Positions 1,747 through 6,816 of a stretch of 6,816 nt of DNA are shown here, piece by piece. Within the stretch, counting starts at the first letter, position 1; each line of letters starts with the position of its first letter. This stretch comes from Promethearchaeia archaeon (GTDB lineage Archaea > Asgardarchaeota > Lokiarchaeia > Sigyniarchaeales > SOKP01), in contig JAWOFX010000010.1 in assembly GCA_046497275.1 (NCBI GenBank), forward strand, positions 1 to 6,816, read 5' to 3'. A program made the translations under genes and the position numbers. Below the pieces are notes generated by a model that saw only the letters and a list, made by a program, of their open reading frames with translations, did not search any database and was not told where the DNA came from.

Positions 1747-3708
1747 ATGAGAGATGAAGGAAGAGAAGGATTGGATGAAATCGATGATAAGTTTGAGAAG
1801 AAATTAGGTCTTTTTCCGCTTATAGTTCTAGGCCTTTCATCCTTAACGGGGGCAGGAATTTATTCGTTATTAGGACCCTCGGCTGAGATCGCAGGACAAT
1901 CGATGATAATGTCTTTTTTCATCGGTGTAGTACTCGCTTTTTTTCTTGCAGGATTGTATTCTGAATTAGTTGCGATCAATCCAGAAAGTGGAGGAGCTTT
2001 TGTATTTGTTGAAAAAGCTTTTGGAAGAAAAGCTCTGTATCTTGGTTGGACCACATGGCTGGCTAATATGTCCTATGGTGCACTAGTTGCCCATACAGCT
2101 GCCATATTTATTACAGGATTATTTAATATTCCTACTGGTTATAGTTTACTCATTGGAATAGGATTCATAATTATAATGAGCGGGGCTAATATACTTGGTT
2201 CAAATTTTTTATCAAAGGTTCAAATTCCATTAACATTCGCCCTTATATTTTCGCTTGTTATCGGTTCGATATATCTATTTTTAAATCCGGATCCTTCCTT
2301 TAATTGGAATATACGTTCCTTTATGCCTTATACTATCATTCCCACATTTATGGCTGCAGCATTAATGTTTAATATATTTATAGGCTTTGAGGATATTTGT
2401 GCTATTTCAGAAGAAACAAAAGAACCAGAGAAAAATATTCCAAGAGCATATTTAGTTATGCTTATTGTTGCATCTGGATTCTATTCAATGGTTATATTCT
2501 CATTACTTATTTCAACATCAATGGAAGCCATAATTGGTAGCGAAATCGCATTTCTGGAGGCTGTTGAAGAGAATCCAATTGTGTATTTTATAGTTTTTTT
2601 TGGGGCAATTTTTTCACTTATAGCAACATCAGGAGTAGCTTTAATGACTTCGTCTCGTAATGTTTTTGCGCTCTCTAGAAAAGATTTTATTAATAGAAGA
2701 TATAGTCAATTAGATCCGAAAACAGGTACTCCCGTAAAAGCAATTTTTTTATCAACTATGATAACTATTTTAATTTTAATCAGCGGGCAAATAGAGTTTT
2801 ACGCATCAATTTCATCAGTATCTTACATGCTTGCCAAAATAGCTATGGGGATGTCGGTCTTTAAATTTCGCAAAACATATGATTACCCAAAAAAAGCTTT
2901 TAAACTACCAGGGCACCCTATTAGTACACTTATTGCAATTGGAACTGCCTTTTTATTGATAATCTCTTTAGGTTTAGATAGCATTCTCGTTGCATTATTT
3001 TGGTTGTTAATTGGATTAATTCTTTATTTATTTTTCAGCAGTAAGAGAAGGGTTTATGGTACTGTCTTTTTAGTCTCAGCTTTCTTATTTACACTTTCTG
3101 ATATGATGATAGGGCTCATAATCCTTGGTGTAGGTTTTATTTATTATTTATTAACAATTACCGATCGCAATTCTTTAAAACTGATATTAGCTGGAATGAA
3201 ATTCTTTTTTATCATTTTCATCGGGATAATGATTTGGCTTATTAAGAATATTGGAATATTAGATGCGTTTAATCCGACATTTATTCCATTTTTTGATAAG
3301 GTTTTACTAAATATTTTAATATTCATTTGTATTTTTTCATTAGGGACCGTATTATTAGATATAATTCCTCTTAAAGAATGGGTATATTATTTCATTAGGA
3401 AAAAGGAACAAGAACAAGTTGCTATTATCGTCGGTTCCGGTCAAATAATTGAGTTAGAACCAAAAAAACGTAAAATAATTCATATTATAAATGACATTAT
3501 AGGAATCTTTCAAATTCTCTTTTTTGTATATATCATTATACTCGTAAGCTTAATTGGGTTAAATGTCATTTCCATTCAAATCTTCTTTTCAGAAATGGTT
3601 AGCGAATTCATTTTAATGGTTATCTTAACAATTTTTGGATCTATCCTCTTAAGCTCAGGGTCATTTTTAATTTATATTAATATAGAATCTAAAGGAATTG
3701 GAATCTAG
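1747..3708 (+). CDS. APC-superfamily amino acid/polyamine permease with an extra C-terminal membrane domain
   Basis: APC motifs are present: TM1 GLSSLTGAGIYSLLG, PESGGAFVFVEKAFG, TM6 FIGFEDICAISEETKEPEKNIPRA, and KLPGHP before the last core TMs. About 220 additional, mostly hydrophobic residues follow the core. Substrate cannot be determined from sequence. Confidence 0.9.
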   Translation: MRDEGREGLDEIDDKFEKKLGLFPLIVLGLSSLTGAGIYSLLGPSAEIAGQSMIMSFFIGVVLAFFLAGLYSELVAINPESGGAFVFVEKAFGRKALYLGWTTWLANMSYGALVAHTAAIFITGLFNIPTGYSLLIGIGFIIIMSGANILGSNFLSKVQIPLTFALIFSLVIGSIYLFLNPDPSFNWNIRSFMPYTIIPTFMAAALMFNIFIGFEDICAISEETKEPEKNIPRAYLVMLIVASGFYSMVIFSLLISTSMEAIIGSEIAFLEAVEENPIVYFIVFFGAIFSLIATSGVALMTSSRNVFALSRKDFINRRYSQLDPKTGTPVKAIFLSTMITILILISGQIEFYASISSVSYMLAKIAMGMSVFKFRKTYDYPKKAFKLPGHPISTLIAIGTAFLLIISLGLDSILVALFWLLIGLILYLFFSSKRRVYGTVFLVSAFLFTLSDMMIGLIILGVGFIYYLLTITDRNSLKLILAGMKFFFIIFIGIMIWLIKNIGILDAFNPTFIPFFDKVLLNILIFICIFSLGTVLLDIIPLKEWVYYFIRKKEQEQVAIIVGSGQIIELEPKKRKIIHIINDIIGIFQILFFVYIIILVSLIGLNVISIQIFFSEMVSEFILMVILTIFGSILLSSGSFLIYINIESKGIGI

Positions 3709-3727
3709 AATCTAAAGGAATTGGAAT
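3683..3727 (+). repeat. Tandem duplication (23-nt period) between the permease stop codon and the element right end
   Basis: TAGAATCTAAAGGAATTGGAAT occurs at 3683-3704 and 3706-3727 (22/22 identical). The second copy runs directly into the element terminus ATGCAT at 3726. Confidence 0.95.
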
Positions 3728-3900
3728 GCATTTTAAAGAGCGCACATCTCTGTGGACCGCAACACATACGTGAATTGGCATTATGTAGTACTACTACACA
3801 TAAACAGTTTGAGTCTTTGCCAAAAATTCTTTTAAACTCATTTGATACCTTTGTGGTTTGATGTTACTTATTCCCACTTTGTTGTTTAACTTTAATTCTT
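3706..3900 (-). ncRNA. Putative orphan omegaRNA/reRNA (scaffold plus guide TCCAATTCCTTTAGATTCTA). The 5' boundary is approximate.
   Basis: TnpB guide RNAs are known to derive from the element right end plus the adjacent flank. On the minus strand the conserved terminal structure includes stem CAC-[GTAT]-GTG and AGAG-atgtgcg-CTCT. Expression is not shown by the sequence. Confidence 0.5.
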
Positions 3901-4054
3901 TGGTGGGGCGTCCGTTTGAGGCGGAAAATTTTATGGGTGGGGTAGTGGTAAATTTAGGAACCCTTTTTTTTGCTTGTTTTGGGCTTATCCTTTCATATTT
4001 TTTCAGATTTTCTTGAGCTTTTTTAACTTCAGAGATGGAAAAATCTTTTGTAGT
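3726..4054 (-). mobile_element. Degenerate, tnpB-deleted copy (copy A) of an IS200/IS605- or IS607-type element: right end plus tnpB 3' tail. The left boundary is uncertain and may extend to ~4128.
   Basis: Colinear homology with 6273-6534. The terminal 27 nt are 25/27 identical, the GCAACAC and GTGAAT blocks are shared, and the tail-coding region aligns without gaps. Homology with copy B ends sharply at ATGCAT. Confidence 0.85.
3794..4054 (-). pseudogene. tnpB: 3' fragment of tnpB (C-terminal tail only, no RuvC motifs, no upstream start codon)
   Basis: The stop-to-stop open frame reads TTKDFSISEVKKAQENLKKYERISPKQAKKRVPKFTTTPPIKFSASNGRPTKELKLNNKVGISNIKPQRYQMSLKEFLAKTQTVYV*. Its last 60 aa are 31/60 identical to the copy B TnpB tail. 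It is absent from the supplied ORF track. Confidence 0.85.
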
Positions 4055-4494
4055 TCAGTTTAGATTTGAAATTTCAAAATATGAAAATTTATAAAAATTA
4101 TATATACCCACTCTCCGAAATTAGAAATCTATTATATTCCCATTAAGATCTCTATAGTTTCTATATTTCTCAATCTCAATTATTATCAAAGTTTAGGAAC
4201 AATATTATTTGCTGTTTTTATGAGATTTATTATTAAGAATGTAGTGATTCAATCTTTAGTATATTTTCTATAATATGTTTAAAATTTATTATTGAACATC
4301 TTAAAATCATTTAATTTGATACTTTCAATGTTAAAATACTTATACTATAAAACATAAGCTAATGGATAAAATCATTTTAACCCATAAATTTTAGAAGATG
4401 AATTAGTTATAATTTGTATATTTCATCCAAAAATTTTTATTTTTTTGATATGTTCATAATTCAATTTTCAATCAATAAATAGAATGTGATATGT

Positions 4495-6252: not shown

Positions 6253-6450
6253 TCTATTTTAAAAAATGGACTATGCATTTTTAAGAGTGCACATCTCTGC
6301 AACCAGCAACACGTTTGTGAATGCGGTATTAGGTAAAACTACTAATAAACTTCACACATAGGCAACACGAGTCATCTTTAAAAACTCTCTTGGACTCATT
6401 TGATGCCTTTGCGGTCTAACTCTGCTTTCATTTAATCTGGCTTTCCTTTT
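6253..6450 (-). ncRNA. Putative cognate omegaRNA/reRNA of copy B (guide AGTCCATTTTTTAAAATAGA). The 5' boundary is approximate.
   Basis: Positioned at the tnpB 3' end and right end. Minus-strand stem ACC-GCA-tt-CAC-[AAAC]-GTG-t-TGC-t-GGT and AGAG-atgtgca-CTCT, with sequence blocks conserved with copy A. Confidence 0.55.
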
Positions 6451-6816
6451 TAATTCTTCTGAGGGAACTCCATTTGAAGGGCAAAATCTAATCGGCGGGG
6501 TGGTGATAAATTTAACAAACCTTTGTCTTGCTTGATTGGTTAAGGGTCGGCGAGGATCGGAAATTAAGCGTAAATTGTAGGCGATGGCTTTATGAGAAAG
6601 GAGCTCTGGATGTTGTTTTCTGCCGATATTAGCCGCACCGTTGATATCTCCGTGAATGATTTTTCCGTTCCTTGTTCGAAATAGCCCATTGTGTTTCACT
6701 TTATTTTGGGTAAATCTGCGTAATCCAGCATATTCATCATTTGGTTTTTTCCCTATCGCTTCATTGTCGATATATGAACATTTGCTAGTATACCATTCGG
6801 TTGTGTAATCCACCGT
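6273..6816 (-). mobile_element. Right part of a tnpB-encoding IS200/IS605- or IS607-type element (copy B), running off the window
   Basis: tnpB 3' region plus a 79-nt 3' non-coding end that is conserved with copy A up to ATGCAT (6273-6278). No tnpA is visible in the window, so the family cannot be fixed. Confidence 0.85.
6352..6816 (-). CDS. tnpB: RNA-guided endonuclease TnpB, C-terminal part (5' truncated by the window edge)
   Basis: EWYTSKCSYIDNE...Y.G.R......GLFRTRNGKIIHGDINGAANIGRK matches the zinc-finger-less TnpB C-terminal signature (E.YTSK.SF.D...GKR..RGL.....G..INADVNGA.NI.RK). The RuvC-III Asp is present at codon 6648-6646. The frame is open to 6816, so GTG 6813 is not the true start. 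Confidence 0.92.
   Translation of the reverse strand, partial: TVDYTTEWYTSKCSYIDNEAIGKKPNDEYAGLRRFTQNKVKHNGLFRTRNGKIIHGDINGAANIGRKQHPELLSHKAIAYNLRLISDPRRPLTNQARQRFVKFITTPPIRFCPSNGVPSEELKRKARLNESRVRPQRHQMSPREFLKMTRVAYV

Follow-up and report, generated by a model that had tools for sequence, protein, structure and literature searches.

Giant TnpB elements and the closest described systems

TnpB with its omega (right-end) RNA from IS200/IS605-type elements, for example ISDra2 (Karvelis et al. 2021, PMC8612924), is among the closest described counterparts of the giant-TnpB elements considered here, a remnant of which was found beside an amino-acid permease gene in contig JAWOFX010000010.1 of a Promethearchaeia archaeon. 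The window, which is the whole stretch of DNA that was analysed, is the entire contig of 6816 nucleotides (nt), and the genome to which it belongs has 3.85 Mb and 30% G+C. The remnant (copy A) carries no tnpB gene, and a 23-nt tandem duplication begins at its conserved 3' end (…AAAATGCAT) and provides the adjacent permease gene with its last codon and its stop. The insertion motif of the element family, the effect of the duplication on the permease and the recurrence of such junction duplications are new results of the present analysis, and on balance they incline us to the view that a duplication event at the junction was retained because it repaired the permease.

Like the ISDra2-type system, the giant family has a TnpB-family protein, a conserved non-coding 3' end overlapping the end of the open reading frame (ORF), a sharp element boundary, a copy-variable flank at the guide position and a short A/T-rich motif before the target in empty sites. 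In contrast to that system, however, the giant family proteins are about twice the usual size, the genome has no detected Y1 or serine transposase, the 5' ends are variable, many copies being truncated there, and the family motif is W-A-T-A-T, whereas that of ISDra2 is TTGAT. Moreover, copy A is without a nuclease gene, and the guide RNA and the cleavage activity of the giant family are putative. Translations of the family show …FGYNKGW… or …IGYNTGW… at the place expected for RuvC-II, and two of the proteins, P0001 and P0002, read …FGYN… at the position of the canonical RuvC-II glutamate; this may be a resemblance to the RuvC-II-rearranged RIIr-5 clade ('TnpB2'; Altae-Tran et al. 2023, PMC10691335), in which Gly takes the place of the catalytic Glu of RuvC-II and another Glu compensates for it. 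TvTnpB (Jiang et al. 2023, PMC10530073) also has an archaeal host, but unlike the giant family it is small, linked to an IS605 TnpA and associated with NTGAC as its transposon-associated motif (TAM).

Two further kinds of system bear some resemblance to the junction. Self-targeting CRISPR spacers, which are tolerated via mutations in the protospacer-adjacent motif (PAM) or the seed, likewise combine a persisting perfect chromosomal match with a motif that is one position off; the window, however, contains neither a CRISPR array nor acquisition machinery, and its match lies 3 nt from the guide template, of which it is a tandem duplicate. The target-site duplications of cut-and-paste transposons likewise place a short direct repeat of the target next to an element, and one metagenomic family member (L116) is truly flanked by such a repeat. 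In the window, in contrast, both units lie on one side of the element, and no flanking repeats were seen at the full copies C108 and C25.

Copy A and its predicted guide template

Copy A (3726-3979, minus strand, identified by BLAST) is a remnant of 254 nt that has lost its 5' part. It retains the last 60 codons of the giant TnpB gene (3797-3976, minus strand; 70% identity to residues 819-878 of P0001 by tblastn), with none of the RuvC codons left, followed by a conserved non-coding end of 71 nt (3726-3796, minus strand). The segment 3726-3979 matches 9-10 other genomic copies at 68-83% identity by BLAST, and each match starts at 3725/3726. Because all family copies terminate at …AAATGCAT, beyond which the flanks are unrelated, 3726 is the element boundary. 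The 3' end itself is strongly conserved, while the 43 distinct flanks that follow …AAATGCAT showed no positional conservation and no shared motif. The sequence TTAGATTC was considered as a shared flank motif and was rejected, its occurrence in 3 flanks being within the shuffle null.

The first 20 nt beyond this boundary (3706-3725, minus strand) are the predicted guide template of the remnant, and by established TnpB biology 3725-3706 would act as the guide. The initial annotation had described copy A as an orphan TnpB guide RNA with this flank as its guide, and the family boundary at 3726 supports the position of the predicted guide template; the interpretation of copy A as the orphan RNA-type end of a TnpB-family element is also supported. 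The consensus RNA fold of the element end is weak (-5.8 kcal/mol, 3 covarying pairs), the fold of copy A with its flank gave a z of -0.5, and an Rfam scan of the whole window with E up to 1 returned no match. A strong terminal hairpin at the element end was also considered and discarded, the DNA folding no better than shuffles (z -0.07 to -1.3).

The junction duplication

The 20-mer at 3683-3702 (plus strand) is perfectly identical to that at 3706-3725 (plus strand), in agreement with the initial annotation, which had reported that the 20-mer at 3725-3706 recurs at 3702-3683 behind TAGAT (3707-3703). The repeat extends to 3679-3704 versus 3702-3727, with a period of 23 and one mismatch, A3682 versus C3705. 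Its element-distal unit (3679-3701) consists of ancestral permease codons and aligns with the single-unit 3' ends of orthologous permease genes, while the element-adjoining unit (3702-3724), the duplicate, provides the last codon ATC and the stop TAG. In consequence of the duplication, a second perfect 20-nt match to the predicted guide (3683-3702, minus strand) is located in the last permease codons, and the 5 nt preceding it (3703-3707, minus strand) read TAGAT. The G of TAGAT is the sole base that differs between the repeat units, the corresponding 5 nt at the end of the element-distal unit (3684-3680, minus strand) being TATAT, the consensus motif of the family. A third copy of the 20-mer is absent from the genome, only the two sites in the window matching, and exact non-low-complexity 20-mers repeated 20-60 nt apart occur at only 7 loci genome-wide.

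The duplication is real and fixed in the populations sampled, because Logan contigs of two DNA studies and an RNA contig carry the repeat. The DNA contigs, from two runs, cover it without gaps (X1 record 2, 3509-4082; X2 record 9, 3200-4057), and a 151-nt metatranscriptome contig (X3 record 16, 3608-3758) crosses it; no variant letters were found at 3682 or 3705 in the DNA contigs or in the RNA contig. The source sample of the genome may be one of the two Logan DNA runs, and with a second study and the RNA contig in agreement, the artefact of a single assembly that the initial annotation had allowed for is set aside. The RNA contigs of X3 and X4, which are unstranded, cover 3200-3758 and 3963-4228, and the uncovered 3759-3962 carries no weight.

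Effect on the permease reading frame

The permease gene (1747-3708, plus strand; Pfam AA_permease_2, E 2e-35) encodes 653 amino acids (aa) ending …ESKGIGI*, and its stop codon TAG (3706-3708) lies within the element-adjoining repeat unit. The orthologues in two genomes of the same genus (G001 and G003, 74-76% aa identity) also have 653 aa and end …ESK(Q/R)IGV*, with one unit only and no element downstream. A computed single-unit allele encodes 667 aa, with 15 foreign codons read into the element, and the duplication brings TAG in frame, giving 653 aa, equal to the orthologue length. As 23 is not a multiple of 3, the shift brings a TAG contained in the N-I-E codons into frame. An insertion at the motif requires an ancestral plus strand of GGA|ATAT… (Gly, Ile, stop), and GTATGA in G001 is one base off the ATATGA that the motif demands. 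The family often inserts at the very 3' end of convergent genes: in four further copies, the host stop codon lies in or at the end of the element (offsets -12, -11, -2 and +5).

Convergent host genes were seen to finish inside or at the last bases of the element at G000:C118:2544-2554, L074 and L054:4880-4882. In one reading frame, the host stop TAA is furnished by the element end itself (within ATGCATTTTAA). Synteny with the related genomes breaks at window positions 3709-4486, where copy A and then a DUF2061 gene follow the permease; at the orthologous locus of G001 and G003, a second, paralogous permease (54-56% identical) lies downstream.

Insertion motif of the family

Derivation of the motif from the 5' ends of full copies failed, as several 5' modules exist, the long form runs off the contigs and the left ends are unreliable. 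Empty sites were more informative. These were obtained by aligning the 3' flanks of copies in other genomes or contigs to the genome of the window, with the alignment starting at the first flank base. Eleven independent empty sites gave the consensus W-A-T-A-T in the 5 nt preceding the flank, the individual sites being AATAT (5 sites), TATAT (3 sites), and TAAAT, TTTAT and GACAT (1 site each). By position, T at -1 and A at -2 were found at 11/11 sites, followed by T at 9, A at 1 and C at 1 of the sites at -3, where G never occurs, A at 10 and T at 1 at -4, and T at 5, A at 5 and G at 1 at -5. AT is present at 11/11 and ATAT at 8/11 sites, compared with backgrounds of 0.148 and 0.019 in A/T-rich windows of this genome, an enrichment with P of ~1e-9 to 1e-12. 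For this TnpB family of Asgard archaea, which is of Cas12 size and uncharacterised, W-A-T-A-T provides a genome-derived insertion motif, presumably the TAM.

TAGAT matches this consensus at 4/5 positions and deviates, in either register of the motif, by one base, the G (C3705) at -3, while the element's own end, TGCAT, has two deviations, at -4 and -3. TAGAT would probably be non-permissive for cutting. In addition, TATAT and TAGAT stand before related sequence and are one base apart, so that they form a natural matched pair for motif stringency. A genome search revealed no further near-match to the guide behind a good motif.

Recurrence of duplications at the element end

Tandem repeats starting 0-3 nt from the element end were found in 3 of the 43 independent flanks, where ~0.04 were expected; the control rate at random positions was 3.75e-4 overall and 9.2e-4 in A/T-rich DNA. 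Besides the window with its 23-nt repeat, these are G004:C366 (L044/L077), with an 18-nt repeat (21/22 identical), and the contig L110 from the Joint Genome Institute (JGI), with 3-4 units of 11 nt. At other offsets, these 43 flanks contain no tandem repeat of this kind. The second sites of the two other duplications are preceded by ATTAG and GTTAT, and seed mismatches are present. This statistical signal indicates that guide-position DNA beside giant-TnpB elements is unusually prone to tandem duplication, and it may offer a clue to the mobility of elements that have no known transposase, or to the action of their nuclease in the cell.

A different kind of duplication was observed in L116 (JGI Ga0209918_1002548), which differs from the empty site G000:C41:461-560 by an insert of 830 nt. 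In this insert, 59 nt of foreign flank, with AATAT as the last bases, are joined to a family element that has an internal deletion, and a 10-nt direct repeat (GGCATATAAT), with AATAT and ATAAT as its bounds, lies on either side; therefore, some family insertions carry flanking duplications together with a transduced 5' flank. At copy A, no flanking target-site duplication was found, both units lying 3' of the element end and nothing comparable being present at the 5' junction.

Origin of the duplication

We consider it somewhat better than an even chance that the duplication originated at the junction and persisted through its repair of the permease, with the self-match as a tolerated by-product. 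The element would have inserted into the permease gene, convergent to it, at the A/T-rich motif W-A-T-A-T, between the penultimate Gly codon and the last codon, and the permease would thereby have lost its last codon and its stop. The element would then have been truncated at its 5' side with loss of its gene, and the 23 nt adjoining its end may have been duplicated in tandem through AT microhomology with the element's last two bases. The duplication would have been kept since the permease again ends Gly-Ile-stop at 653 aa. The near-TAM self-match, 3 nt past the guide template and behind TAGAT, would have been carried along, most likely spared from cutting by the mismatch at -3, by an absence of copy A RNA, or by both. 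Both the order of these events and the selection for the stop codon are what we infer from the present state of the locus, which on this account would illustrate a host gene hit by an element and then mended by a frame-shifting duplication.

Several points weigh against this account. No single-unit allele was found in the Logan contigs spanning the locus, and the order of events is unobserved. The exact restoration of Gly-Ile-stop could partly be due to chance. The junction duplications of G004:C366 and L110 are intergenic; therefore, selection on a reading frame is not the whole story, and a mutational mechanism tied to the element end is needed. The motif register is ambiguous by 2 nt, the element itself ending in AT, and the only pair with both junctions (L054 versus C172) leaves these 2 nt unsettled, while the absence of G at -3 in natural sites is based on n=11 only. 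Furthermore, the RNA end of copy A could still be functional, as predicted from its conservation: it departs from 5 of 125 highly conserved columns, a deviation no greater than that of c71 and copy B, the gene-linked copies that deviate most (most have 0-3).

A rival reading takes the junction duplication as a footprint of the element's own machinery. Giant Asgard TnpBs would act on their own flanks, leaving guide-length duplications as scars of cleavage, whether guided by RNA or directed by the motif, or of repeated insertion and excision, and the TATAT self-target would have been disarmed by a T-to-G change at -3, as an escape from self-cutting by giant TnpBs supplied in trans. Such scars could result if the DNA were cut in a staggered manner, at the element end and ~20 nt inside the flank that matches the guide, and then filled in, if strands were exchanged between TGCAT at the element end and a motif-like site downstream, or if the flank went through an insertion-excision cycle. 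The presence of junction repeats with periods of 23, 18 and 11 nt in 3/43 flanks and at no other offsets argues for this possibility, as does the 10-nt direct repeat of L116 between AATAT and ATAAT. Moreover, every repeat unit ends in an …AT motif, the one mismatch of the window repeat falls on motif position -3 (TATAT versus TAGAT), and the 18- and 23-nt units fit the cut distance of 21-22 nt reported for an archaeal rearranged-site TnpB (PMC10530073). However, microhomology slippage from an AT-ending element predicts the same AT-ended units, the 11-nt multi-copy case does not suit a cut ~20 nt away, and orthologue parsimony lends slight support to G as ancestral in the two units, which would remove the escape story. 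With no Y1 or serine transposase detected in the genome, a nuclease activity that is presumed and three cases in all, we regard such a footprint as unlikely, although it would, if true, constitute in-genome evidence of active nucleases, with the orphan guide RNA in cis and the protein in trans.

A role of the orphan RNA in the cell appears still more doubtful. Together with a trans-acting giant TnpB, the RNA might bind the second site without cutting it, or cut it, or it might be a read-through antisense transcript, and in either case it would regulate the permease 3' end. The deviation of copy A at 5/125 conserved columns, within the range of gene-linked copies, the perfect 20-nt match behind a near-consensus motif and the RNA contig covering 3608-3758 are compatible with this, and domesticated TnpB relatives are described as using guide RNAs as regulators (bioRxiv 10.1101/2023.11.30.569447). 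The RNA contig, however, is unstranded and may represent the permease 3' untranslated region or DNA carry-over, a target at the far 3' end of a gene is ill placed for repression, and the fixation of the locus in three data sets argues against cutting, which would be lethal. Nor do the second sites of the other two duplications have a consistent motif (ATTAG, GTTAT), and they carry seed mismatches. Ordinary replication slippage, neutral and unrelated to the element, is improbable to a similar degree. It would draw on the 3-base microhomology (AAT, plus strand) that flanks the units and on A/T-rich sequence with small internal repeats. Such duplications are very rare in this genome, however (7 loci in 3.85 Mb), and the present one begins precisely where the element stops, as is also seen at two more family copies; its frame change restores the native permease length, and the element end is without a strong hairpin to stall the polymerase. 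The enrichment of repeats at the junction argues against this reading as well.

Several proposals of the initial annotation need revision. TAGAT had been taken as a possible TAM that, with the adjoining protospacer, completes an empty-site mimic. Its relation to W-A-T-A-T at 4/5 positions stands, whereas its G at -3, where the 11 natural sites have T (9), A (1) or C (1), speaks against a complete mimic. The predicted cleavage by an active cognate TnpB is not supported either: three data sets have the locus fixed, and at least six giant TnpB ORFs are uninterrupted in this genome. The duplication had further been offered as a reason for the nuclease loss of copy A, but other 5'-truncated remnants, of 601, ~75 and ~25 nt, and two decayed copies on contig C185 show no such duplication. 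Simple slippage with no function, the fallback of the same annotation, is too weak an explanation, given that the permease stop is restored and that duplications recur in 3/43 flanks.

Copy B, the giant-TnpB family and further features

Copy B (6273-6816, minus strand), identified with Pfam, BLAST and tblastn, comprises the last 154 codons of a giant TnpB gene (6352-6816, minus strand), interrupted by the contig end, and the conserved RNA end (6273-6351, minus strand). Its predicted guide template is 6253-6272. The full copies have uninterrupted ORFs of 700-880 aa. Together with copy B, they match the Pfam families OrfB_IS605 and Cas12f1-like_TNB, while the match to NCBIfam guided_TnpB (76 bits) is under the cut-off of 100. 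The nearest database relatives are proteins annotated as TnpB in metagenome-assembled genomes (MAGs) of Candidatus Lokiarchaeota. Searches for Y1 (PF01797) and serine (PF00239) transposases gave no match in the genome, which is 98.9% complete, while control genomes were matched.

The end-specific pattern of the family was found in 3/151 genomes of the order, all from one Promethearchaeota/Lokiarchaeota genus, and also in JGI metagenome contigs. In a scan of the species collection, the family appeared in two Promethearchaeota MAGs only (BC3 and Bin_204), in addition to chance matches in unrelated genomes. The same pattern gave 0 matches in viral contigs, and nothing was confirmed in a search with P0001 for related loci across the genome contig collection. 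Assembly breaks lie inside or beside family copies, as at window position 6816, in C30 and C128 and in many contigs of G002 and G004; therefore, copy numbers and left ends are under-sampled. L080 (G002:C67) and L070 (G002:C41:10851-10873) are remnants of the 3' end only, ~75 and ~25 nt long, without flank duplication.

The window also contains an ORF of 487 aa (205-1668), which gave weak coiled-coil matches of the ZapB, tropomyosin and crescentin-rod type, all below Pfam cut-offs. The 5' modules of the family are of at least three kinds, and the long form, which measures at least 4.8 kb and includes an upstream ORF of 832 aa or more, leaves every contig on which it occurs. In the JGI contig L052 (1-2496), this upstream ORF leads into the giant TnpB gene. 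A Pfam search of the 832-aa ORF found no domain; it contains an FLDSGS motif, and a stand-alone homologue, 55% identical, is located at G000:C111:39164-41587, on a contig that gave no match to the 3'-end probes of the family. As well, a subfamily (G000:C71, G000:C92, G000:C118, L054 and L056) carries an antisense, Cys-rich small ORF of ~60-110 aa upstream of the TnpB gene, which lies ~2.4-2.8 kb upstream of the element 3' end, follows the pattern C…C…CxC…PPYP.C and is conserved among copies.

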